Shown: piece after piece, positions 3,250-64,000 of the stretch
Position numbering within the stretch: position 1 is the stretch's first letter
Layout: the number at the start of each line of letters is the position of its first letter
Assembly (NCBI GenBank): GCA_948485625.1
Contig: CAOMRW010000002.1
Location: 4,452 to 68,451 of the forward strand
DNA: 64,000 bases
Origin: an uncultured Clostridia bacterium
Lineage (GTDB): Bacteria > Bacillota > Clostridia > TANB77 > CAG-508
Direction of reading: 5' to 3'
Position numbers and translations under genes: made by a program
Notes under the pieces: generated by a model
Seen by the model: the letters and a program-made list of their open reading frames with translations, nothing else
What the model was told of the DNA's origin: nothing
Databases searched by the model: none

Positions 3250-6200
3250 CTACATTAATCTTTTGTCTATAATTAATTTTTTTATTATAAATCCTGCTAT
3301 TCCAACCATTACAATTGTTGCAACAATTAAAGATACTGTCATAACAACTTGACCTGTTCTTATACTTATAATTAGGTCTGCTGCTCCCATATCGTTTTCA
3401 CCTTTTACCTTATTTCCTTCAGTTGAGTTTACATCAGTTAATCCTAATTCATTATATGAACTTGCTATTTCAGCTGTATTATTAATTAATCCTGTGTTAT
3501 TCTCTTTCATTTCTTTTATTACTGTTAAAGTAACCTCTCTACTTTCACCAGGTGCTATTTTCTCATTTGCAAGGCTTGTACAATATACATCTTTTCCAGA
3601 TTGATACCAGTCTTTATTTAATTCAGAATTAAACTTATAATCACTTGATAAATAATCTGCTATCTTCTTAACATATGCTGCCACATCACCCTTATTTGTT
3701 ACTTTTATTGTATATTCAACTACTATTATCGTAGAGTTAACTTGTTTTGCATCTATTTCTTGTTTTACTAATGTTGCATCTTTGTATGTATTTGTTACTG
3801 TCTTATTATTCTGTACTGTAACTTTACTTATATATTTATCTAATTGTAAATCATAATTTTTAGCAGTTACTAACCCAATATTGATATTTGATATATTATT
3901 ATCATTTATATTTATTATTTGTGTTGCTGCTACTTTACTCTCTTTTCCATCAATCTTTATAGTTTTTGTAATTACATTTGAATTCAAGTCATCAGAAATT
4001 CCTTCTTTTTCAAATATAGTTAATCCATATTTAGTATTATCATATTCAAATATAACTAAGTATTGACCTTTTACTACTTTATCAAAACTATAAAATCCTG
4101 TTGAACTTGTTGTTGTAGATAAAATGTTTCCATTTTTGTCTTTTACAAATTCATTTTTAGATGTATCAAGTAATTTCACTGTCATACCTTCTATTGTTTT
4201 TTCATTAGAATCTCTTTTTCCATCATCATTTTCATCTATCCAAGCAACACCTGAAATTATTTTATACTCTTCAGGTTTTGAAGTATCACCATTATTGCCA
4301 TTGTTTCCATTGTTTTCATTATTCTCATTATCTTCATCTCCAGTTGTTCCATCTCCACCATTATTTAAACCTTCTTCTGGTTGTAAAATATGTGTAATTT
4401 TTGCTTTAGAAATCACTGTAGAAAATATCTGTAATGAAGCCTCATCTATTATTTCAATTGACTTTGTGTTTCCTAATAATAAATTTACAACTACTTCAAT
4501 TTCATATTCAATAGTTTCTCCAACATTTAATGGATTGTGTTTCAATACTAATAATTTCTGATTTTTAGTATCATCAACTTTTAATGAATAGTCTTCTTCT
4601 GATAACTGTGTTCCATTTTTCATTACTTTTACTAATGAAACTTCATTTGAAATCCAGTTTCTTAGAGTTATAGCATTAGCAACTCTTTCCCCATTATTTC
4701 TAATAGTAATATTATATTTTATTCTATCTCCTGCTTTTACATATTTTCCACTATTTTCTGAATCCATATTCATACTTACTTGTAAATCAGACTGTGCTAT
4801 TACATTAACTTCATTTGAATTATATTTTTCATTATTAACTTCACAATTTGCTGTAATATATACTTCTTTTGAAGAAACATCATCAAATATCTCTACTGTT
4901 GTATAAATTACCAATTCAATAGTTTCACCTGGTTGAATTTCTGCTATTGTTATATTATTTGAATTTTTCTCTGTAATAATTCTGTCATTATAATCATAAT
5001 AAATCTCAAAAATATCTATAAAATCATTTGTATCTATTGTAGCTTTAACATTTTTTAATACTCTATCTGAATTGTTCTTAACATTTAAAACATATCTATA
5101 CTCAAATCCACTTTTAACAATATTACTAATAGCATCAATAGAAATCAATTGTAATTCTAATAGTCCATCTTTTACAGTTGTTTTAGTCTCATTTGAATTT
5201 TTAGTAACCTCCCCATATTGTGTTGTAACAGTATTAGCAATATCTTTTCCAGACATTCCTTTATTTACTTTTACTTCATAATATCTTGTTACTTTTTGTC
5301 CTTTTGGCAAATTATCTATATTAAATTCAACTTGTTTCTTATTAACATCTTCAAATTCTAAGTCATCTAAAGCAACTTCATTATTTAAAAAGTCTGTATT
5401 AACATATGTTGTACCATCAGGAACATTTGCTTTAACTTTTACATTTGATATATCTTCTGAACCCACATTAGCCACAACAACTGCATATCTTAATACTTCA
5501 TTTTCTCTTACTTCATTAGTTTCTTTTCTTGCAACCAATGTCTTCAATGTAGTCTCAAGAACTGTTCCTTTTGGAGTTCCCAATCTAATAGCCTTTGTAT
5601 TAACTTGTTCATCTATTGTCACGTTTTTATAGTATACTGTATATCCCTCTTCCGCTGTCTCATTATATTCAAGATTAGATGGTATAGTTATATCATATGA
5701 TATATTAATAGTTTCTAATAAATCTAACTCATCAATAACAACTAAATATTTTTTAACAAGTTTATTATCTTCTATACTATCAGTCCAATTATTATCTTTA
5801 TTAGATAAATCTTCTGTTGCCATTTCATTATTTGAATAATATACTTTTACTCTACTAGCATCTATATCAGATATTTGTAAGTTCCCAACTTCTATATCCA
5901 TATTGTTAACATCCATTGCTTCTTTTGTTGGAAATGCTCCTAATATTTTTACATCTGAAATTTTATTTTCTTTGTTATTTATTATTTCTTTTCTAATTGT
6001 AACACTCTTTGTATCTGTTGCAAGAGCTAACTCTCCTGCAAGTGTTCCTTCATTATTTACAACATCTATTCCATATTCTGAAATTTGATTTGTTGTTACA
6101 ACACCAGCATAAGAAACTATATTTATATCTTTGCTAACTGTTCCTTCATTTGAATTTCCTGTTACATTATTATTCACATATGTTAATTTAATTTGTTCTA

Positions 6201-8139
6201 CACTAGTTGGAATCTTTTTACTTGTCATTAAATTAGCATTTATTATAATTACTGCACCTTCTATAGCTTCTTCTTTATATTTAGTTTGTTCTCCATCTAA
6301 AACCATTTCAATAGTTCTACCATTTAAAACCGCTGATTTTATTACTAACTCATCCTCATAAAGTAATTTGATATAATTAACTTTTATATCTTGTATTTTC
6401 TCAGGCAATTCTAATCTTATAACTGGATTTTTAAATAATTGATTATTCTCTTCTCTAGAATTCAAAACAACTCTAAATTCAACATTATCATTAGATGTCA
6501 TTGCTGATAATTCTGTTCTATTAATTTGTAAATCTACTGATGTCTCTGTTTCTTTTAATTCAATGTTTGATTCAATAGTTCCTAATGAAACTTCATTATT
6601 ATCCTTAACATATGAAACAGCAGATTTCAAATTTATAGAATTTGAATCTTTAACTATATTTCTATCATTATCAATTATTGTCTTTGTATTCTGTATTTCT
6701 AATTTCCCTATTCTTTCAGACTCTACAAATCTAAATACAACAGTTTTTATATTTTCTGGATATGTAACAACTACAAATCCACTTTCATCTGATGCAGTAT
6801 CTTTATTTATTGTTGTTATAATATTTCCTGTTACAGCATCTAAAATATTTAATAATCCTTTTTCACCTAATAAATTATCTATATCAGATTTTTTAATTCT
6901 AGTAGTTCTATAATTTGCATTTAATGTACTTTCACCTATAGTTTGAATCTCTTCTCTAAGATTAATCTCATCTGCAACATTATTCAAATTAACATTTACT
7001 ATATTTTTATAAGTAATATCTCTTGAAATACCTGAATATAAGTTTCCTTTATAAATACTTGCTTCATTCTGATATGTATCTATAGTAACAATAGAGTCCT
7101 TTTCATTTTTATCTAATGTAATTTCATTAGAAGCTTTCATAACTGTATTACCCAAATCATAAAGCTCAATATTTGAACTTATGCTACTCTTTTCATCATT
7201 TATTTCTACATCTTTGTCTAGAACATATGTAATTATAAATTTATCTTCTCCATTTTTTCTCCAAGAAACTTTATTATTTTCATTAACATTTTCTATATTA
7301 ATAGAAATTACACCTGATTCATTATTATAATTCCAATCATTTTTTGATAGCATTTTACCATTTGTCATCAAAACATCATTTGAATTAACTAATACACTTT
7401 CAGGATATTTATCTAAAATTTTAGGAGCTTGAATATTAACTATAGTTTTTTCTATTGGAAACAAATTATCTTTCAATCCAGCTCTAACTTGTAATTGTAT
7501 AACTCTTTTATCTTCACCATTAAAATTAAGAATTTTATTAGTTATAATTTCTTGTGATAATATTATGCCATCATCAACATTATCATATGGACTAACTAAT
7601 CTCAAAGATATATTTCTATTAGAATTTATAGCAATATCTTTTTGTAAACTGTCTCTATAAATACCCTCTATAGAAACATCACTTTCCATATTAATAAAAT
7701 TCAAATCAAATTGCTCCTCTTTTAATAAGTCAATTCCTACTTCTATTTCTTTAGTTTCTCCAGCATTTATTTGATTTAAAACTATAACATTATTCTCTAT
7801 TCTACTTATTGACTCACTTAATACTTCTGGTTTAATTCTAAAATTAGCATTATTTAAAACTATATTTCCATTAAAATATCCCTCTTGTTTTACAGATATT
7901 TGAAAATATACTTTTAGATTACCATTATTTGTATAAGTATCTAACTCTGTAATCTTATTTTCTCTTTCATCCTTAAAATAAGCCATAAATTCTATATTTT
8001 TATGGTTTGTGTTCTTATTTACATTCATTGCATCAGCTGCATAAGATACCACATCAACACATAACAATAAAAAATTTGCCATTGTCAATGTCACAATTAA
8101 TAGCATTGATGTTATAACTTGTAAAATTCTTTGTTTCAT
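3250..8139 (-). CDS. giant secreted surface protein, A-type (1629 aa): DUF11-like repeats, SdrD-B/Cna-B-like module, C-terminal TM anchor
   Basis: Single 4.9-kb ORF with N-terminal signal peptide (MKQRILQVITSMLLIVTLTMANFLLL). SdrD-B-type module SGVAWIDENDDGKRD...GFYSFDKVVKGQYLVIFEYD. C-terminal DUF11-like domain (YDLQLDKYISK...EYTIKVTNKGDVAAYVKKIADYLSSDYKF...APGESREVTLTV). It ends IISIRTG + hydrophobic helix + KKLIIDKRLM, which resembles a sortase-type sorting signal without LPXTG. Confidence 0.8.
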   Translation of the reverse strand: MKQRILQVITSMLLIVTLTMANFLLLCVDVVSYAADAMNVNKNTNHKNIEFMAYFKDERENKITELDTYTNNGNLKVYFQISVKQEGYFNGNIVLNNANFRIKPEVLSESISRIENNVIVLNQINAGETKEIEVGIDLLKEEQFDLNFINMESDVSIEGIYRDSLQKDIAINSNRNISLRLVSPYDNVDDGIILSQEIITNKILNFNGEDKRVIQLQVRAGLKDNLFPIEKTIVNIQAPKILDKYPESVLVNSNDVLMTNGKMLSKNDWNYNNESGVISINIENVNENNKVSWRKNGEDKFIITYVLDKDVEINDEKSSISSNIELYDLGNTVMKASNEITLDKNEKDSIVTIDTYQNEASIYKGNLYSGISRDITYKNIVNVNLNNVADEINLREEIQTIGESTLNANYRTTRIKKSDIDNLLGEKGLLNILDAVTGNIITTINKDTASDESGFVVVTYPENIKTVVFRFVESERIGKLEIQNTKTIIDNDRNIVKDSNSINLKSAVSYVKDNNEVSLGTIESNIELKETETSVDLQINRTELSAMTSNDNVEFRVVLNSREENNQLFKNPVIRLELPEKIQDIKVNYIKLLYEDELVIKSAVLNGRTIEMVLDGEQTKYKEEAIEGAVIIINANLMTSKKIPTSVEQIKLTYVNNNVTGNSNEGTVSKDINIVSYAGVVTTNQISEYGIDVVNNEGTLAGELALATDTKSVTIRKEIINNKENKISDVKILGAFPTKEAMDVNNMDIEVGNLQISDIDASRVKVYYSNNEMATEDLSNKDNNWTDSIEDNKLVKKYLVVIDELDLLETINISYDITIPSNLEYNETAEEGYTVYYKNVTIDEQVNTKAIRLGTPKGTVLETTLKTLVARKETNEVRENEVLRYAVVVANVGSEDISNVKVKANVPDGTTYVNTDFLNNEVALDDLEFEDVNKKQVEFNIDNLPKGQKVTRYYEVKVNKGMSGKDIANTVTTQYGEVTKNSNETKTTVKDGLLELQLISIDAISNIVKSGFEYRYVLNVKNNSDRVLKNVKATIDTNDFIDIFEIYYDYNDRIITEKNSNNITIAEIQPGETIELVIYTTVEIFDDVSSKEVYITANCEVNNEKYNSNEVNVIAQSDLQVSMNMDSENSGKYVKAGDRIKYNITIRNNGERVANAITLRNWISNEVSLVKVMKNGTQLSEEDYSLKVDDTKNQKLLVLKHNPLNVGETIEYEIEVVVNLLLGNTKSIEIIDEASLQIFSTVISKAKITHILQPEEGLNNGGDGTTGDEDNENNENNGNNGNNGDTSKPEEYKIISGVAWIDENDDGKRDSNEKTIEGMTVKLLDTSKNEFVKDKNGNILSTTTSSTGFYSFDKVVKGQYLVIFEYDNTKYGLTIFEKEGISDDLNSNVITKTIKIDGKESKVAATQIININDNNISNINIGLVTAKNYDLQLDKYISKVTVQNNKTVTNTYKDATLVKQEIDAKQVNSTIIVVEYTIKVTNKGDVAAYVKKIADYLSSDYKFNSELNKDWYQSGKDVYCTSLANEKIAPGESREVTLTVIKEMKENNTGLINNTAEIASSYNELGLTDVNSTEGNKVKGENDMGAADLIISIRTGQVVMTVSLIVATIVMVGIAGFIIKKLIIDKRLM

Positions 8140-17065: not shown

Positions 17066-17323
17066 TTACACTTTTCTATATATAAATACAGATAGTATCA
17101 TACCAATAATACTTGCAACATTTATTCTTATCATTAGTCCAAATGTTAATTTTAATACATTCAAATCTAATATTAATGGATTTTCTAATCCAAATGCTTG
17201 CTCATATGATAACCACCAAAGCCATGGTACTCCTGATGCTAACTTTCCAAGTAGTCCCCCTACTACTAAACCTGCTAATAAAAATACTAACAATACCCAT
17301 ATATTTTTTTCTCTTGTTGCCAT
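17066..17323 (-). CDS. DUF4321 family small membrane protein
   Basis: Probable start MATREKNIWVLLV at 17323 behind a GGAGG RBS (track ORF extends to 17410). Two TM helices. Commonly found beside radC/mreB in Firmicutes. Confidence 0.55.
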   Translation of the reverse strand: MATREKNIWVLLVFLLAGLVVGGLLGKLASGVPWLWWLSYEQAFGLENPLILDLNVLKLTFGLMIRINVASIIGMILSVFIYRKV

Positions 17324-17438
17324 TTTTATACCTCCATTTTTTCTTTCGTCCTTACGGATAATACCTTTTCTAATATACTGTATTATATATTGATTTACGT
17401 TTTTTTTCAAGTAATTTATATAAATTTAAGAAAAATGA

Positions 17439-17467
17439 TTTACATTCTTTATAATCCATTATATAAT
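17439..17467 (+). promoter_or_regulatory. sigma-70-type promoter for the kinase-CYTH gene
   Basis: TTTACA (17439..17444), 17-nt spacer, TATAAT (17462..17467). Followed by GGAGG RBS at 17505..17509 and ATG at 17518. Confidence 0.55.
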
Positions 17468-17517
17468 TCGTTTACGCAACTTTATTAACCTTTTCTATTA
17501 TTTTAGGAGGTAATCAC

Positions 17518-18621
17518 ATGAAAAAACAGGTTTGGAATTTTGTTCTCACTGGAGGCCCTTGTGCAGGAAAAACAACTGGTCTTTCTACTATGGAACAAGA
17601 ACTACAAAATCGGGGATATTATGTATTAATTGTCCCTGAAACAGCAACAGAATTAATTTCAACTGGTATTCGTCCTTTTAATAATTCTTTAGATTTATTA
17701 CCTTTTCAATATGTAGTATTTGAAAAACAAATTCATAAAGAAGAATTATACAGAAAAGTAGCACAAATGATACCAGCTGAAAAAGTTATTATTATCCATG
17801 ATCGTGGTATAATTGATAACAAAAGCTATATAACAAATAAACAATTTCAAGAAATTCTATCTCACTTTTCCTTTAATGAAGTAGAAGCACGAGATAGATA
17901 TGATGCTGTATTTCATCTTGTAACAGCTGCAAATGGAGCTGAAGAATTCTATACTTTAGCAAATAATGTTTCTCGAACAGAAACACCAGAAGAAGCACGG
18001 AAACTAGATGAACTAGGAATTTCAAATTGGACTGGACACCCACATTTTAGAATTATTAATAACAGTACAGATTTTGAAAGGAAGATGGAAAGATTAATGT
18101 GTGAAGTATATTCAGCTCTTGGAGATCCTACACCTATTGAAATTGAAAGAAAATACCTTATTAAAAAACCTGACATCAATACACTTGCAAAATACGTCTC
18201 TATTACTGTTATTGATATCGTTCAAACATATCTCAAGTCAACGGGAAATATCGAACGACGTGTACGTCAGAGAGGTCAAAATGGTAACTTTTCATATTAT
18301 TTAACAGAAAAACGTGAAATTGATTCATTAAAACGTGCTGAATCAGAAAGAAAAGTTTCTGAAAAAGATTATATTCATTATCTTTCAGAAATAGATACAA
18401 CTCTTCATCCAATCATAAAAAAACGAATCTGCTTTGCATACAAATCGCAATATTTCGAATTGGATGTTTTCGATTTTTCCAAAGATTTAGCTTTGATGGA
18501 AATTGAGCTAACTAATGTAAACTCTTCTGTTGAATTACCTAACTTTATTGATATTATTAAAGAAGTTACAGATGACCCAAAATATCGTAACCATCAAATT
18601 GCTAAAACACAAACCTTGTAA
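17518..18621 (+). CDS. P-loop nucleotide kinase-like (AAA_28/NadR-like) domain fused to CYTH (triphosphate tunnel) domain
   Basis: Walker A VLTGGPCAGKTT at the N-terminus. CYTH signature EIERKYLI plus downstream acidic/basic tunnel residues (ERRVRQRG, FELDVFDF, MEIELT) at the C-terminus. Visibly higher GC and different codon choice (CGG, CGT, ACG, GGC, CTC) than neighbouring genes. Confidence 0.7.
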   Translation: MKKQVWNFVLTGGPCAGKTTGLSTMEQELQNRGYYVLIVPETATELISTGIRPFNNSLDLLPFQYVVFEKQIHKEELYRKVAQMIPAEKVIIIHDRGIIDNKSYITNKQFQEILSHFSFNEVEARDRYDAVFHLVTAANGAEEFYTLANNVSRTETPEEARKLDELGISNWTGHPHFRIINNSTDFERKMERLMCEVYSALGDPTPIEIERKYLIKKPDINTLAKYVSITVIDIVQTYLKSTGNIERRVRQRGQNGNFSYYLTEKREIDSLKRAESERKVSEKDYIHYLSEIDTTLHPIIKKRICFAYKSQYFELDVFDFSKDLALMEIELTNVNSSVELPNFIDIIKEVTDDPKYRNHQIAKTQTL

Positions 18622-18670
18622 TTAATAATAATGTTGTATTAGAATATTATTATCTGCAAAGAAAGCTGTA

Positions 18671-18770
18671 AAAAATCTGTGGTGATTGGAGATGATGATT
18701 TTTGGAGCCAAGACCTGGCCTAAAAAACACTACTCCAATCACTACAAACTTTTTTACAGACTTTTTTATT
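18671..18770. repeat. palindromic MITE/REP-like intergenic element (copy 1)
   Basis: Arm ctgtaaaaaatctgtggtgattggag pairs with ctccaatcactacaaacttttttacag. Core ccaagacctggcc sits between the arms. Ends ...acagacttttttat. Related copies at 41783..41885 and 63961..64000. Confidence 0.6.
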
Positions 18771-18867
18771 TTTTATATTTAATTTAGAATTTAATTACCA
18801 AAAATTACTCCTTTAAATATAATAATAATAGTAGTATAATATAATTAATGATACTGGAGGTAATCTA

Positions 18868-19497
18868 ATGAAAATTGAAAAATTAACAGAAAATAAAATT
18901 AGAATAATACTAAAACAAGAAGACTTTAAAAATAAGTCAATAGATTTAAAAAAATTTATTCTAACAGAACCTGAAACTCAAAGTTTATTTTTAGAAATAT
19001 TAAATAAAGCAAAAAAAGAAGTTGACTTTGACACAGATGGTCACAAATTATTAATAGAAGCTTATTTTCAAAATAGTGATGTATTCATATTTACAATAAC
19101 AAAATATACTGAATCTAATACAACTCTAAAAAACAATACAAAAAAACTTTTATCAATAAGAAAAAAAGTTTCAACTCTACATAGCCCCTGTCATATTTAT
19201 CAATTTGATAATTTTGAAAACTTTTGTGATTATTGCAATTATATACATAAAAAAAGCACAATTAACTTAAAAACTATATTCAAATCATGTATTTTGTATC
19301 TATACAATAATACATACTATTTAGTATTTGATGGAATAAACATATCTCATAAATCATTAGCTCTATTCCATTCATCTTTATTAGAATTTTCTACTTGTTT
19401 TAACTGTACGAAAAATTTCAAGTTTAAATTAAAAGAACATGGAAAAATAATTATAAAAAATAACGCCATAAATACAGGAATCAAATATTTTGCATAA
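18868..19497 (+). CDS. mecA: adaptor protein MecA-like
   Basis: N-terminus MKIEKLTENKIRIILKQEDF...LFLEILNKAKKEVDFDTDGHKLLIEAYFQNSDVFIFTITKY resembles the MecA N-domain (MKIEKINDNTIKIFLTYDDL...). C-terminal YYLVFDGINISH resembles the MecA C-domain. Confidence 0.55.
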   Translation: MKIEKLTENKIRIILKQEDFKNKSIDLKKFILTEPETQSLFLEILNKAKKEVDFDTDGHKLLIEAYFQNSDVFIFTITKYTESNTTLKNNTKKLLSIRKKVSTLHSPCHIYQFDNFENFCDYCNYIHKKSTINLKTIFKSCILYLYNNTYYLVFDGINISHKSLALFHSSLLEFSTCFNCTKNFKFKLKEHGKIIIKNNAINTGIKYFA

Positions 19498-19532
19498 TAA
19501 AATTATAAAATTCCCTTATATAAAAGTAAACA

Positions 19533-19568
19533 ATCCACAATTTAAAACTAAATTGTGGATTATTTTAA
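19533..19568. terminator. bidirectional intrinsic terminator between mecA and the M23 peptidase gene
   Basis: atccacaattt-aaaact-aaattgtggat stem-loop followed by tattttaatt. Confidence 0.55.
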
Positions 19569-21593: not shown

Positions 21594-23909
21594 TTATATA
21601 ATCTCTAAATTAGCAAACTTAGCCATTAATCTTTTATGTCCAACCTTATCAAAATTAATATCAACTTTTAAGTCATCTCCCTCAGGCTCTACATTACTAA
21701 TAGTACCCTCACCGAACTTCTTATGGAATACTCTAACACCTGAATCATATTTAGATAAATCTACATTACTTCCCAAAGATTTCTTGTTCAAATTATTTAA
21801 GAAACTCTCTGCTGTTCTAAACATAAATCCATTACTATTTGAATTTGAAGATGCTGCGCTCATTGCTGGCTCTTTACTATCAATTTTATATGTCTTAATA
21901 TTTCCATTATCTTTACTACCATATGTCCAACTATATTTTGAATCTCCGAAAATCCTATTAGACTCTTGCTTTTCTCCTAATGCTTCATCATAACCATCTA
22001 ACAATTCACATGGAATTTCCTTTAAAAATCTAGAAACTTGATTACAACTTGTAGAACCAAAAATTGTCCTTTGCTTACTACATGTTAAAAATAAATTCTC
22101 TTTTGCTCTTGTAATTCCAACATAGCATAATCTTCTTTCTTCTTCTAGCTCTTTTGGTTCAGAAATTGATTTATACCCTGGAAAAATTCCCTCTTCCATT
22201 CCAACTAAAAATACAACTGGGAATTCCAAGCCTTTTGCACTATGTAACGTCATAAGAGTAACTGTATCTTCAGTTTCCTCCAAATTATCAATATCACTAG
22301 ATAATGTTATTCCCTCTAAGAAATCACTTAACTTGTTATCAGCAGATTCCTCCTCAAATTCTATAGCAACAGTTAAAAATTCATCTAAATTCTCTATTCT
22401 ATTTTCTGCTTCTATAGTATTTTCATTTTCTAAAGCTTTTGTATATCCTGATTTTTTAAGAGTTTCTTTAATTAATTCAGAAATTTGCATATCATCTTTC
22501 TTTGCTCGTAACTCTTCTATAGCATTTATAAATTCTCTTGAATTCATAAATACTCTATTTAAACCATATTGGTCTGCATGTTCTATAATTTCATACATAG
22601 AAATACCACTAGTATTTGAAATCTCTTCAATTTTATCTAAACTCGTTTTTCCAATTCCTCTTTTAGGTTCATTTATTACTCTTTTTAAACTTAAATTATC
22701 TGATGGATTTTGTATCAATCTTAAATATGAAATAATATCTTTAATTTCTTTTCTTTCATAGAATTTAAGACCACCTATAATTTTATAAGCAATATTTTCT
22801 CTCCTTAAAATATCTTCTATAGCTCTTGATTGTGTATTCATTCTATAAAGAATAGCAAAATCTGAATACTTATAATATTCTTCTCTTCTTAAATGTTCAA
22901 TTTGTTCAGCAATATATGTTCCCTCATCATATTCATTACCTGCAGAATATACTTTTGGTAAATTCCCAACATCATTTTGTGTCCATAATTCTTTTTTATA
23001 TGTAACTTCATTATTTTTTATTACGGAATTGGCAGCTTTTAGTATATTTCCTGTACATCTATAATTTTGCTCCAATTTAATTATTTTAGTTCCTGGAAAA
23101 TCTCTTTCAAAATTTAAGATATTTGAGATATCTGCCCCTCTAAAACTATAAATTCCTTGGTCATTATCACCAACAACAGTTATATTTCCATTTTTAGAAG
23201 CAAGCATTGTAACTAATGTAAATTGTGCTTTATTAGTATCTTGATACTCATCAACTAAAACATATTTAAATTTATCTGAATAATAGTCTAATACATCTGG
23301 ATTCTCCATTAAAATTTTAATTGTATAATTTATAATATCATCAAAATCTATAGCATTATTTTCTTTCAATCTTTTTTGATACAACTCATAAACTAATGCA
23401 ATTTTCTCTTTTCTAAAATCACCATTCGCTCTAACAGCATATTGTTCAGGCTCTAGCATTTCATTTTTTGCATTACTTATTTCTGATAAAACAGATCTAT
23501 CTGTAAACATTTTATCATCTAATCCAATACTTTTTATACAAGCCTTTATTAATGTTCTTTGGTCAGATGTATCAAATATTATAAAAGAAGAATCAAATCC
23601 TATTCTGTCTATAAATCTTCTTAAAATACGTACACATATTGAATGGAAAGTTCCCATCCATATATCTTTAGCAACATCTCCTACTAAATTTGCAATTCTC
23701 TCTTTCATTTCATTTGCAGCCTTATTTGTAAATGTTATTGCTAATATATTCCAAGGCAATACTCCTTTTTCTCCTATTAAATAAGCAATTTTATGTGTTA
23801 ATACTTTTGTTTTTCCACTTCCTGCTCCAGCAATTACTAAACATGGCCCTTCTGTATTTACTACAGCCTCATATTGTTTATCATTTAATCCATTTAATAA
23901 ATCTTGCAT
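21594..23909 (-). CDS. pcrA: ATP-dependent DNA helicase PcrA (UvrD family)
   Basis: Walker A AGAGSGKT, motifs VDEYQDTN and FHSICVR, C-terminal Tudor-like tail. 771 aa. Confidence 0.9.
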   Translation of the reverse strand: MQDLLNGLNDKQYEAVVNTEGPCLVIAGAGSGKTKVLTHKIAYLIGEKGVLPWNILAITFTNKAANEMKERIANLVGDVAKDIWMGTFHSICVRILRRFIDRIGFDSSFIIFDTSDQRTLIKACIKSIGLDDKMFTDRSVLSEISNAKNEMLEPEQYAVRANGDFRKEKIALVYELYQKRLKENNAIDFDDIINYTIKILMENPDVLDYYSDKFKYVLVDEYQDTNKAQFTLVTMLASKNGNITVVGDNDQGIYSFRGADISNILNFERDFPGTKIIKLEQNYRCTGNILKAANSVIKNNEVTYKKELWTQNDVGNLPKVYSAGNEYDEGTYIAEQIEHLRREEYYKYSDFAILYRMNTQSRAIEDILRRENIAYKIIGGLKFYERKEIKDIISYLRLIQNPSDNLSLKRVINEPKRGIGKTSLDKIEEISNTSGISMYEIIEHADQYGLNRVFMNSREFINAIEELRAKKDDMQISELIKETLKKSGYTKALENENTIEAENRIENLDEFLTVAIEFEEESADNKLSDFLEGITLSSDIDNLEETEDTVTLMTLHSAKGLEFPVVFLVGMEEGIFPGYKSISEPKELEEERRLCYVGITRAKENLFLTCSKQRTIFGSTSCNQVSRFLKEIPCELLDGYDEALGEKQESNRIFGDSKYSWTYGSKDNGNIKTYKIDSKEPAMSAASSNSNSNGFMFRTAESFLNNLNKKSLGSNVDLSKYDSGVRVFHKKFGEGTISNVEPEGDDLKVDINFDKVGHKRLMAKFANLEII

Positions 23910-27474: not shown

Positions 27475-29451
27475 TTACATAATTGTCAAATTATAATTTA
27501 TTTTAGCCTCATCCAAAATATCTTTTTCTCTATTAGTACAAGTAAAAATAATTATCTGCCTATTCTTAAATTCACTACTCAAATACATTAAAATATTCCT
27601 TAATCTCTCATCATCATAAAAAGCAAAAGCCTCATCTAATAAAATTGGTACTTTTTCATCTGACATCTCATCTATCATAGAAAGTCTTAATGACAAATAT
27701 AATTGGTCAATTGTTCCTATACTTAATCTATTAGCAGAAACATAGTCTCCACTTTCTAGTTCAACAATTAACCCTTCTGCCTCATTAAACATAACTTTAG
27801 TATATTTTTTATCTGTAATCTCAGAAATATTATTAGACAAATTCTCTGTAAACTTAGGGGCAACTAAATTCTTCATATTTTCATAAGCTGAATTCAAAAC
27901 ATCTTTTGCTAAATTCATACTTAAATCTAACTTTTTTAAAGTTAACATTCTTTCATTATTGTTAACTAATTCTTCTTCTATTTTTGCAAGATTATCCAAT
28001 TGAGGTTCTATATTTTTTTTATCCAAATTTAAAGAATGTAATCTTAATTTTTTATCATTTATCAATTTTTGAATTTTTTCAATTTCAAAATTTATATTTT
28101 CTAAATTATTTAAATTAATAAAATTATTTATTTTATTTTTTTCTAATTTATTTAAATAATTATTTTTTATTTTTTCTTTTTCCAAATTTATTTTTAAATT
28201 AAAATTATTTTTTAATTTATTTAATTCTTCATTTAAATTATTTAAATTATTTTCTATTAATTTTTTTTCATTTTTTAAATTAATTAATTCTAAATTAATT
28301 TTATCAAAATTATTTTTTTCTATTTTTTCTTTATTTTTTATTTTTTTATTTTGATGGTTTATAAAAAATAAATAAAAAATTAAAAACGTTGGTACTGTAA
28401 GGAGAAAAATATATCTAAAAATATTATTTTTTATAAAAATAAATTGAAAAATATTAATTAAAATTAATAAAATAAAAATAATATTTAATTTATTTATTTT
28501 TTTATTATTTATTTTATTTTTATTATTTTTTATTTTTTTATTTTTTAAATTATTTTCAGAATATTTTTCGAAAATATTTTGATTATTATTTTTTAATTCA
28601 TTTATTTTATTATTTAATAAATTTATTTTTTCTAAATTATCATTTTTTATATTTTCTTTTATTTTTATTTTTTCATTTTCTATTTTTTCATTTTCATTTA
28701 ATAATTTTATTTCTTTTAAAAAACTATTTTCATTTTCTAAATTTAAAATTTCTTCATTTAAATTATTTTCTTCATTTTCAAATTCATATCTAAAATTTTT
28801 ATATTTTTCTAATTCCTCTTTTTCTTCTTGCAAATTATTTATATTTCTAGCAATTATATTAATTGGCTTTTCCCTAGACCTTTCAGTCCCAACCTCATCT
28901 AATTGTCTTCTATTTATTCTATCAATTACCCTTTTAAAAGAAACACTATCATCACCTGTCTGTGCTAAATTCGCAATTTTCTGAATTAAAAAGTTTTGTT
29001 CTTGATTTTGTAATTTTACTTCATTTTGATTTATTGCAAGAGTCGATAAAAATAAATCTTCATCTATTTTAGTTTGTTCATAAAAGAATTCATTTCCCTT
29101 ATTTTTATCAATATTAAACTCCTTAGAAATATCCTCCATATTTTCATTAAATATCTTAGGATTCTTCTTATTAAAATCCCTATAAATTTCATATTTATTA
29201 TTATTATCTAATTGATATTCCACTTTCCCAGAAAAATCCTCACCACTCCAAGGCTTATATCTATCATAATCTGAAAAGTCTTTACCTCTCTTATTTTTAG
29301 AAATACCATAAAAAGTATTAATCATAAAATTTATTAGAGTAGATTTTCCAGCTTCGTTTTTTCCATAAATGATATTTATTCCATCTTCTAATTTAATTTC
29401 TTTATTCCTTAATTTTCCATAAGAATTAATCATTAATTTATTTATCTTCAA
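27475..29451 (-). CDS. yhaN: SbcC-family AAA ATPase with membrane-spanning insert (YhaN-like)
   Basis: Walker A GKNEAGKST at the N-terminus. C-terminal Walker B/D-loop ILLDEAFAFYDDERL. Central part is extreme N/K/I/E low-complexity coiled coil with a hydrophobic hairpin (IIFILLILINIFQFIF...YIFLLTVPTFLIFYLFFI), as in B. subtilis YhaN. Paired with a YhaO-like nuclease. Confidence 0.75.
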   Translation of the reverse strand: MKINKLMINSYGKLRNKEIKLEDGINIIYGKNEAGKSTLINFMINTFYGISKNKRGKDFSDYDRYKPWSGEDFSGKVEYQLDNNNKYEIYRDFNKKNPKIFNENMEDISKEFNIDKNKGNEFFYEQTKIDEDLFLSTLAINQNEVKLQNQEQNFLIQKIANLAQTGDDSVSFKRVIDRINRRQLDEVGTERSREKPINIIARNINNLQEEKEELEKYKNFRYEFENEENNLNEEILNLENENSFLKEIKLLNENEKIENEKIKIKENIKNDNLEKINLLNNKINELKNNNQNIFEKYSENNLKNKKIKNNKNKINNKKINKLNIIFILLILINIFQFIFIKNNIFRYIFLLTVPTFLIFYLFFINHQNKKIKNKEKIEKNNFDKINLELINLKNEKKLIENNLNNLNEELNKLKNNFNLKINLEKEKIKNNYLNKLEKNKINNFINLNNLENINFEIEKIQKLINDKKLRLHSLNLDKKNIEPQLDNLAKIEEELVNNNERMLTLKKLDLSMNLAKDVLNSAYENMKNLVAPKFTENLSNNISEITDKKYTKVMFNEAEGLIVELESGDYVSANRLSIGTIDQLYLSLRLSMIDEMSDEKVPILLDEAFAFYDDERLRNILMYLSSEFKNRQIIIFTCTNREKDILDEAKINYNLTIM

Positions 29452-41703: not shown

Positions 41704-41782
41704 ATAATCACCTACTCATATTATTCTTGTTAGATTATATGCTTTTTTTATTTTTTTTGCAATCAATAATATTAAAAAAATC

Positions 41783-41885
41783 TGTCATAATCAAAAGCCA
41801 GGTCTTTCCCTCTTACTTTTATATATATAAAAGTAAGGATTAAAGACCTGGCCTCTCATTACTATCATATTAACACAGACTTTTT
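41783..41885. repeat. palindromic MITE/REP-like intergenic element (copy 2)
   Basis: aaaaaatctgtcataatcaaaa-gccaggtctttccctcttactttt...aaaagtaaggattaaagacctggc-...acacagacttttttat. Same termini (aaaaaatctgt / acagacttttttat) and ccaggtct/agacctgg core as copy 1. Confidence 0.6.
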
Positions 41886-41910
41886 TATGGCCCTTTTTTT
41901 TACATAAGTT

Positions 41911-63824: not shown

Positions 63825-63960
63825 ACTATCACCTCTAATAATATTTTATAATATTTTTCAAAAATAGTCAAGTTTTACGTTTATAACCGTAAAACTTTAT
63901 TTTTTATTTTTTTTTACGTTTATATATTATATGCAAAAAAGTACAATATATACAATAAAA

Positions 63961-64000
63961 GAAACTGTGGTGATTAGGGGCCAGGTCTTAAATCCTCATT
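63961..64000. repeat. palindromic MITE/REP-like element (copy 3, truncated by window edge)
   Basis: aaactgtggtgattaggggccaggtcttaaatcct shares ctgtggtgatt and ggccaggtct with copies 1 and 2. Confidence 0.45.

Follow-up and report, generated by a model that had tools for sequence, protein, structure and literature searches.

The window analysed here is a 64,000-nucleotide stretch of contig CAOMRW010000002.1, from a very AT-rich gut Clostridia bacterium, in which a plus-strand open reading frame (ORF) at 17518-18621 encodes a 367-residue protein that joins an N-terminal P-loop kinase-like domain of the AAA_28 family to a C-terminal CYTH, or triphosphate-tunnel, domain. The gene is the single ORF of the region 17439-18770 and lies among core cell-division and competence genes. 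It is probably a self-contained acquired gene, inserted once and kept by purifying selection, whose product works as a coupled kinase/triphosphatase and not as a cyclase. Horizontal acquisition of the cassette, which had been proposed in a first-pass annotation made from the sequence letters, is supported by the presence of empty sites at the same junction in related genomes, by the outlying codon usage of the gene and by the occurrence of the same gene, with its own promoter, at unrelated loci. Judged from its motifs, the protein would most likely control the level of a (poly)phosphorylated nucleotide-type metabolite.

The kinase-like and tunnel domains

The N-terminal half of the protein is dominated by a match to Pfam AAA_28 that covers residues 8-189 and model positions 2-164 of 164 (E 8.8e-22, 78.5 bits vs a cutoff of 27), in agreement with the nucleoside triphosphatase of the AAA_28/NadR-kinase type named in the first-pass annotation. 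The domain that matches AAA_28 presumably carries the InterPro name NadR/Ttd14. Both motifs quoted in that annotation were located in the ORF, VLTGGPCAGKTT at residues 9-20 and EIERKYLI, at the start of the tunnel domain, at residues 208-215. The kinase-domain motifs comprise the Walker A sequence G12-G13-P14-x-x-G17-K18-T19, E41, the DRX motif D95-R96-G97 and the candidate lid residue R153. All 45 distant representatives examined (37-55% identity) keep G12, G13, G17, K18, E41, D95, R96, D100, Y128, Y145 and R153 unchanged. P-loop kinases are recognised by the combination of a P-loop, a DRX motif and a lid (PMC12995831, citing Leipe et al. 2003).

The AlphaFold2 model of the protein (predicted local distance difference test score 91.5; predicted template modelling score, pTM, 0.90) places the N-terminal half, by Foldseek, next to thymidylate, deoxynucleoside and deoxycytidine kinases. 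The fold is thus shared with the thymidylate-kinase-like P-loop kinases, which include the polyphosphate kinases PPK2 and PPK3. A PHROG thymidylate-kinase family is also matched (E 1e-5), and D95-R96 align to the DR of Aquifex thymidylate kinase in a weak alignment (E 0.4). No NCBIfam family is matched above its cutoff, the sub-threshold matches being to dTMP kinase and MeaB, and the PDB sequence search returned no match to NadR or PPK structures. The RNK domain of NadR, itself of the AAA_28 family, resembles the window protein in the full-length AAA_28 match, the P-loop, the DRX motif and the lid. In contrast to NadR, the window protein has no nicotinamide mononucleotide adenylyltransferase domain.

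The C-terminal domain was recognised by Pfam CYTH (PF01928) at residues 207-333 with E 5.3e-5 and 23.6 bits, just above the gathering score of 23.2. This assignment, also made in the first-pass annotation, is backed by sequence, profile and fold matches to NE1496 (2FBL/3TYP), the Nitrosomonas inorganic triphosphatase: phmmer gave E 0.004, a profile built from 41 relatives E 5.5e-9, and Foldseek of the model E 1e-10 at 27-28% identity, with a target-normalised TM-score of 0.67 for 2FBL. The eight strands of the beta-barrel tunnel in the model span residues 209-216, 229-242, 245-254, 257-267, 273-280, 299-308, 311-318 and 324-331. The domain carries the motifs E208-x-E210-x-K212, R248-x-R250, K265, R273-x-E275-x-E277, K301-x-R303, E314-x-D316 and E328-x-E330, and a C-terminal helix completes the set. 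These motifs are at least 90% conserved among the 41 relatives, all of at least 52% identity. The acidic positions are kept almost throughout (E208 in 40/41, E210 in 38/41, E328 in 41/41 and E330 in 38/41), as is K212 (38/41), and the basic tunnel residues R248, R250, K265, K301 and R303 are conserved.

Class IV adenylyl cyclases (AC-IV) are marked by HFxxxxExExK, by replacement of the first arginine of xRxR with Cys, Val or Leu, and by ExA in place of ExE. Hydrolases carry ExE on strand beta-8, where the second glutamate binds metal 2, and thiamine triphosphatases have an aromatic residue in W/YxRxR (Vogt et al. 2021, PMC8233210). The window protein has Gly-Asp and not HF at positions 202-203 (G202 in 40/41 relatives; position 203 is E, D or V), retains the first xRxR arginine (R248, 41/41) and retains ExE as E328-I-E330. 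The position of the W/YxRxR aromatic is taken by E246, which is invariant in close relatives and aligned to a glutamate of NE1496, and a thiamine triphosphatase was rejected for this reason. Taken together, these residues place the domain with two-metal triphosphate hydrolases such as NeuTTM and CthTTM, and neither with AC-IV enzymes nor with thiamine triphosphatases. A fusion of a kinase with a CyaB-like class IV nucleotidyl cyclase, which would make the cyclic nucleotide signal that the first-pass annotation had considered, is scarcely credible: class IV adenylyl cyclases do have the CYTH fold and the Yersinia AC-IV (2FJT) is among the fold matches (rank 33, E 1e-5), but all three AC-IV signatures are absent, the hydrolase signatures are present and the nearest solved relative hydrolyses inorganic triphosphate (PPPi).

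NeuTTM (NE1496) provides the best match, by both sequence and fold, for residues 205-362, and is a solved, PPPi-specific enzyme. NeuTTM and CthTTM are stand-alone bacterial inorganic triphosphatases of CYTH cluster 2 (Vogt et al. 2021, PMC8233210), and their likeness to the window tunnel extends over ExExK, RxR, KxR, ExE and the C-terminal helix. Both are single-domain proteins of ~150 residues. In contrast, the window tunnel is fused to a P-loop domain, against which it is predicted to pack with confidence (pTM 0.90).

In the proposed mechanism the P-loop domain, of the thymidylate-kinase/NadR-RNK class, would bind a purine nucleoside triphosphate (NTP) and then either hydrolyse it or pass its gamma-phosphate on to a small acceptor that bears a phosphate or resembles a nucleoside. 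GTP would be the likely ligand, by analogy only with the Drosophila protein TTD14 described below. The tunnel would hold the triphosphate moiety among its basic residues and hydrolyse it by a two-metal mechanism, with PPPi, a short polyphosphate or a nucleotide 5'-triphosphate as candidate substrates.

Relatives and readings of the function

The gene is an ordinary member of a large, widespread bacterial family of fixed two-domain architecture that is known to databases and biochemically uncharacterised. At least 7,858 homologous clusters were found at 90% identity. At 50% identity there are 6,619 representatives with E<=1e-3, of which 1,380 reach E<=1e-30, and among the best 150 almost every match extends over the full length of ~365 residues. 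Fusions of an XRE-type helix-turn-helix (HTH_3) domain to AAA_28 and CYTH, of ~431-445 residues, recur in P0110, P0138, P0157 and P0264, that is, in at least four independent 50%-identity clusters, of which P0264 holds 34 members on many contigs; these HTH-fused relatives resemble the HTH-plus-kinase logic of NadR. A RelA_SpoT domain precedes AAA_28 and CYTH in the 710-residue P0248 (L050, 4435-6567), which adjoins a GGDEF-EAL gene, and a guanylate kinase does so in the 791-residue P0183 (L051, 4004-6379); each of these two was observed a single time. As read from their domains, the fusions point towards guanine-nucleotide or alarmone metabolism or sensing.

Outside bacteria, the same domain order, with the P-loop N-terminal and the CYTH-like domain C-terminal, is displayed by Drosophila TTD14 (CG30118). 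TTD14 binds GTP, phosphatidylinositol 3-phosphate and phosphatidic acid and has a role in membrane-protein trafficking, and its N-terminal P-loop, GxPxxGKT, includes P75, which is essential for GTP binding (PMC4624897). The window protein has the same GxPxxGKT with proline in third place, P14 corresponding to P75. The hhhhDxG motif of TTD14 at 152-158 lies 79 residues after the start of Walker A, and the window sequence V/I-I-I-x-D95-R-G97 lies 78-79 after. Similarly, the CYTH domain starts ~200-215 residues after the start of the P-loop domain in both proteins. TTD14 differs in being eukaryotic and in having an extra N-terminal extension of ~60 residues, for a total of 475-515. By these motif positions, compared as quoted in PMC4624897, and by the InterPro name of the domain, the window protein is likely to belong to a TTD14-like family.

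The plant proteins AtTTM1 and AtTTM2 also have an N-terminal kinase and a C-terminal tunnel, and the AtTTM1 structure 7Z67 is the sole whole-length Foldseek match (E 2e-8). The arrangement of the domains differs, however, with a superposition root-mean-square deviation of 20.9 A. The plant kinase is a uridine/cytidine kinase (PF00485), whereas the window protein carries AAA_28 with no PF00485 match. The plant tunnels lack ExExK and ExE, both intact in the window protein, and are inactive as triphosphatases, and a coiled coil and a membrane anchor are found in the plant proteins. The plant fusion is thus analogous, independently assembled and not homologous. In AtTTM1 the inactive tunnel regulates the fused kinase (PMC9582702), so a small-molecule P-loop kinase that is regulated by a tunnel domain packed against it has a known example in plants.

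Several points weigh against a coupled kinase/triphosphatase. The Pfam CYTH score is marginal, barely above the threshold. Among distant members, other residues stand in for the metal-binding glutamates in ~20-30% of sequences (kept: E208 in 32/45, E210 in 33/45 and E330 in 34/45), R250, K301 and R303 being kept, so that in some members the tunnel may sense a ligand and not act as a catalyst. TTD14 has been shown only to bind GTP and lipids, and literature searches for AAA_28 and IPR038727 yielded no bacterial characterisation and no measured enzymatic activity for any bacterial member. The window protein itself is, by its residues, a member of the catalytically intact subgroup.

The same observations bear on the possibility that the protein is mainly a sensor or regulator, in which P-loop and tunnel bind nucleotide or (poly)phosphate ligands and signal to partners, a role proposed for TTD14 and played by the AAA_28 domain in NadR. 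The recurrent HTH_3 fusions in at least four independent clusters would suit such a role, as would the replaced glutamates and retained basic residues of distant members, the binding of GTP and phospholipids by TTD14 without demonstrated catalysis (PMC4624897) and the regulatory tunnel of AtTTM1 (PMC9582702). For the window protein this is nevertheless rather unlikely, given that the catalytic residues of both domains are intact and nearly invariant in the 41 close relatives, and that the protein has neither a DNA-binding or other output domain nor a conserved neighbour.

A wider reading is tentative and clearly improbable as a whole: the substrate of the kinase/triphosphatase pair would be an alarmone of the guanine-nucleotide type, or else inorganic tri- or polyphosphate, and a recombinase-free cassette would have spread among very AT-rich Clostridia. 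The pair might, for example, synthesise a signalling nucleotide with a 5'-triphosphate and cut it back, or it might move phosphate from NTP to PPPi and the reverse. This proposal draws on the rare RelA/SpoT (P0248) and guanylate kinase (P0183) fusions, on the recurrent XRE-type HTH fusions, on the GTP specificity of TTD14 and on the precedent of PPK2/PPK3 for polyphosphate use. If true, recombinase-free spread of a minimal promoter-bearing cassette would represent an unusual single-gene mobility. The physiological role of CYTH/TTM proteins is still described as elusive (PMC8233210), and the roughly one thousand 50%-identity clusters with an intact tunnel and a P-loop kinase-like domain are a defined place to seek a natural substrate. 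The same family offers, in bacteria, a model of TTD14, an animal protein that is still unexplained. The locus is otherwise ordinary, and the interest lies mainly in the natural substrate of the family and in how a promoter-bearing cassette appears to spread with no recombinase of its own.

Insertion between DUF4321 and mecA

MecA was used as a handle to gather 37 further metagenomic loci, with 3 more from contig look-ups; a scan of species-representative genome contigs, which did not include the window's own genome, gave two loci. Synteny was scored by local tblastn, and the counts take loci in which both anchors are present. The order mreB-radC-DUF4321-mecA-M23-cotF-pcrA is kept throughout the collected loci, at MecA identities of 32-71%. 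The window species, sampled on contigs L003-L005 (one from the NCBI metagenome-assembled genome (MAG) GCA_950096955.1), displays an identical arrangement in all, and in the mouse-gut MAG MGBC165941 (locus L001) the gene order is likewise kept, with an orthologue of 80% identity in this junction. These two are the only carriers at this position. Between DUF4321 and mecA the window has 1,544 bp and MGBC165941 has 1,453 bp, vs 193-666 bp, with no gene, in ~33 related loci that represent ~21 non-redundant lineages, outgroups included. Local alignment, tblastn and blastn of the empty spacers revealed no remnant of the cassette above shuffle level. The gene is thus not universal in relatives at this locus.

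Comparison of empty and filled sites defines an insert that starts just 5' of the -35 box and stops just before the mecA promoter region, with bounds (~17430-18792) nearly the same as those given in the first-pass annotation. The left junction reads ...aaatttaa followed by gaaaaatgatttaca, with ~12 nt of uncertainty (17430-17441), and the right junction ...tagaattt followed by aattaccaaaaatt, which belongs to the conserved mecA promoter region. The window and MGBC165941 agree exactly at the left junction, which points to a single insertion event common to both. The insert is accommodated between the divergent promoters of the DUF4321 operon and mecA, and neither is disrupted. No convincing direct repeat or target-site duplication was found at the junctions, and no integrase or transposase ORF is present in 14-22.5 kb of the window. 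In the proposed history, the cassette would have entered once, into the ~190 bp that separate the divergent promoters of DUF4321-radC-mreBCD and of mecA, in an ancestor common to the window species (MAG GCA_950096955.1) and MGBC165941, and vertical inheritance under purifying selection would have followed.

The composition of the gene is distinguished by codon choice. The first-pass annotation had called the gene visibly GC-richer than its neighbours, which is not upheld by calculation: its G+C content (GC) is 0.308 vs a mean of 0.274 (standard deviation 0.033) for the 42 window ORFs, nine others of the 42 are equally or more GC-rich, GC at third codon positions (0.147) equals the window mean exactly, and windowed GC gives no signal of transfer at the gene. 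In contrast, its claim of different codon preferences is amply confirmed, with a synonymous codon choice z of -8.8, the strongest outlier of 35 window genes (the next is -3.7). The window is strongly strand-skewed and the gene lies on the minority plus strand, so the test was repeated against plus-strand genes only. The z was then -6.0, and the remaining four plus-strand genes fell between -0.1 and +2.3. The shift is seen in arginine CGN codons (13/21 vs 27/487 elsewhere; Fisher p 8e-11) and in isoleucine ATA (5/34 vs 901/1645; p 2e-6), and serine AGT and leucine TTA are also depleted. The evidence for a foreign origin is thus codon choice and the empty sites, and not bulk GC. For annotation, the lesson is that a single gene can be foreign despite ameliorated bulk GC, which codon choice and empty sites reveal and windowed GC does not.

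Close homologues (64-76% identity) occupy six other contexts, seven in all with the window locus. They are flanked by a FAD/Rieske oxidoreductase and a sigma-factor gene (L002), a polysaccharide deacetylase and a LytTR two-component system (L046), NfeD-Band_7 and a two-component system (L048), rpsU-YqeY and nrdG-nrdD (L049), an integrase, AIM24 and ResIII helicase (L052), and groEL with a 142-residue ORF and rplU (L055). No partner gene recurs across the seven. The gene is a codon outlier in the MGBC165941 orthologue (z -10.2) and in 4/4 contexts tested (L002 -8.0, L046 -16.6, L048 -6.8, L049 -19.1). Its GC in these five loci is 0.30-0.40 vs ~0.25-0.28 in the surroundings, reaching 0.40 vs ~0.27 in L046. 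The homologues apparently derive from a somewhat GC-richer donor pool and have been ameliorating to different degrees; from the L046 copy, a donor of ~38-45% GC would be expected. Homologues in other genomes are also preceded by the near-consensus promoter noted in the first-pass annotation. Over the 90 nt 5' of the gene, five contexts have in common a -35 box, an extended TTTTACATAA, a -10 box and a leader that runs from AACCTTTT to TTTAGGAGGT, and this common sequence indicates that promoter, leader and ORF move together. Small ORFs without a Pfam match accompany two of the homologues: in L055 a 142-residue ORF (4576-5004) overlaps the start of the homologue by 4 nt, and in L052 ORFs of 122 and 115 residues (4533-4901 and 6126-6473) flank it.

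The first-pass annotation had placed such genes in stress, defence or signalling islands. A single-gene anti-phage or stress effector, which would deplete or modify NTPs on activation from within a small variable island, could be read from the patchy, transfer-prone distribution and atypical composition, from the homologue P0051, which adjoins a tyrosine integrase, an AIM24 protein and a 1,182-residue ResIII helicase, and from stand-alone CYTH triphosphatases in phages (phrog_6660; PMC7824862). It is very improbable here, and the site bears no mark of a defence, stress or signalling island. The sole PADLOC match is negligible (mad8, E 0.004, 14.7 bits, in the P-loop region; PADLOC-DB 2.0), the flanks are core genes, and six of the seven contexts are housekeeping (cell shape, ribosomal proteins, groEL, nrdDG). 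The gene has neither a sensor nor an effector as partner, the conserved promoter is of a constitutive type, homologues of the same architecture occur in insects and nematodes, and full-length homologues amount to none on phages and one on 72,556 plasmids.

The acquisition is old and preceded the divergence of the two carrier species, which are ~20% diverged in protein sequence. Between the window and MGBC165941 the gene has a synonymous divergence (dS) of 1.05 and a ratio of nonsynonymous to synonymous divergence (dN/dS) of 0.11. Both values fall inside the ranges of ten flanking genes (dS 0.60-1.25, dN/dS 0.05-0.23), which indicates a functional gene that has co-diverged with its surroundings since the species split. 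Five flanking proteins were concatenated for 21 lineages. The neighbour-joining tree built from them puts the window, MGBC165941 and the empty-site locus L006 in one group, and all more distant lineages and outgroups have an empty site. One gain near the base of this group is the parsimonious reading.

The account of a single gain followed by vertical inheritance has points against it as well. The exclusive clade of window and MGBC165941 has a bootstrap of 35% in the flanking-gene tree, and the alternatives are a slightly deeper gain with clean loss in L006, or an early transfer between lineages through the homologous flanks. CGN codons that persist at dS ~1 could partly reflect selection and not incomplete amelioration. 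No vehicle was identified in the plasmid (72,556 plasmids) and phage collections, with no full-length homologue on phages. The sole full-length homologue of the plasmid collection, at 37% identity, is on an 816-kb replicon of the actinobacterium Miltoncostaea oceani. That the gene is ancestral at the locus and was lost many times, its odd codons resulting from selection (for example through low expression), is in the highest degree unlikely: co-divergence with the flanks (dS 1.05), the CGN bias lasting in two lineages and a quartet of window, MGBC165941, L006 and L007 that favours no topology (19/22/27 informative sites) would be compatible with it, but it needs clean, remnant-free loss in ~20 non-redundant lineages, all outgroups (L027, L032, L033, L039) included, and close homologues stand at six unrelated loci with their own promoter and a GC still higher than that of their neighbours.

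The palindromic repeat and the surroundings of the cassette

The features of the cassette and its anchors are collected in Table 1. The assignment of the neighbours as radC/DUF4321 and mecA in the first-pass annotation agrees with Pfam.

Table 1 Features of the cassette and its immediate flanks (window coordinates)
Feature	Position	Strand	Basis
Inserted cassette, ~1.35 kb: promoter, 5' leader, ORF, terminator region	17430..18792	+	Empty sites L006/L007 and filled site L001 compared
Sigma-70-type promoter TTTACA-17-TATAAT, the cassette's own	17439..17467	+	11/12 consensus positions
Shine-Dalgarno AGGAGGT, 6 nt before ATG	17505..17511	+	Read from sequence; GGAGGT invariant in homologue upstream alignment
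AAA_28-CYTH two-domain ORF, 367 aa	17518..18621	+	ORF call, Pfam
P-loop kinase-like domain, residues 8-189	17539..18084	+	Pfam AAA_28
CYTH / triphosphate-tunnel domain, residues 205-362	18130..18603	+	Pfam, profile, fold, motifs
Long imperfect palindrome, then T-run	18659..18767	.	Folding dG, z vs shuffles
Left anchor DUF4321, first gene of DUF4321-radC-mreBCD operon	17066..17323	-	Pfam; 85-aa gene call in same-species contigs
DUF4321-operon promoter	17382..17410	-	Promoter scan
Right anchor mecA	18868..19497	+	Pfam MecA, E 5e-28
Conserved mecA promoter region	18795..18840		Upstream sequence kept in empty and filled sites

The palindrome 3' of the gene is imperfect, 108 nt in length and strongly folded, with a folding free energy (dG) of -49.2 kcal/mol and a z of -8.7 vs shuffles. 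It is one of three related, intergenic palindromes in the 64 kb; the others lie at ~41773-41890 (-35.7 kcal/mol, z -6.6) and at ~63960-64000, where the copy is cut by the window end. The copies open with AAAAAATCTGTGGTGATT and close with ACAGACTTTTTT, and have a GCCAGGTCTT/AAGACCTGGC core in common. MGBC165941 carries a short simple terminator (aaaaccaactcattgagttggtttt) in place of the palindrome, which shows that the palindrome was not part of the original cassette. Its presence in the window and absence at the homologous site represent turnover, at a site whose surroundings are too diverged to define the ends of the element. The palindrome is thus a dispersed repeat resembling repetitive extragenic palindromic (REP) sequences or miniature inverted-repeat transposable elements (MITEs), and it arrived after the cassette. 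The MITE-like label of the first-pass annotation is therefore reasonable in view of the dispersed copies, but the element does not belong to the cassette as inserted. By its position and T-run, the palindrome probably serves as the cassette terminator here.

In an integron gene cassette the ORF has no promoter and is followed by an attC site, whose core sites read RYYYAAC...GTTRRRY. Such a cassette was rejected as an identity for the insert, which has its own conserved promoter; the palindrome lacks attC core sites (GTTRRRY ends) and is absent in MGBC165941, and its other copies are not linked to cassettes. A search of 16.5-20 kb against Rfam gave a chance miRNA match on the palindrome only, with no riboswitch or leader RNA indicated.

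On the left, the minus strand carries DUF4321, radC, mreB, mreC, mreD and a PBP2 gene; on the right, mecA (plus strand) is followed by an M23 peptidase gene, Coat_F genes and pcrA. A perfect bidirectional terminator hairpin at 19528-19565 separates the convergent mecA and M23 peptidase genes. The neighbourhood of mecA is variable on this side too, as L028 has ~1.8 kb extra (4628-6437) between mecA and the M23 gene. The 666-bp spacer between DUF4321 and mecA in L014 is unusually long and has no recognisable gene. In the empty-site loci L007/L008 radC was called as 154 residues (4046-4510) with the UPF0758_N domain only, and the remainder was found by tblastn in another frame, probably because of a frameshift or pseudogene. 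In two contigs of the window species, pcrA was called in two pieces around an opposite-strand ORF of 94 residues in L003 (6825-7109) and L005 (5652-5936). The gene is intact (771 residues) in the window (21594-23909) and in L004, and the split could reflect either an insertion that varies between strains or a difference in assembly. Further along the window, 27475-29451, and especially 28001-29000, is extremely AT-rich (12% GC per kb). This stretch falls within an ORF of 658 residues and 18% GC, and contains many low-complexity inverted repeats.

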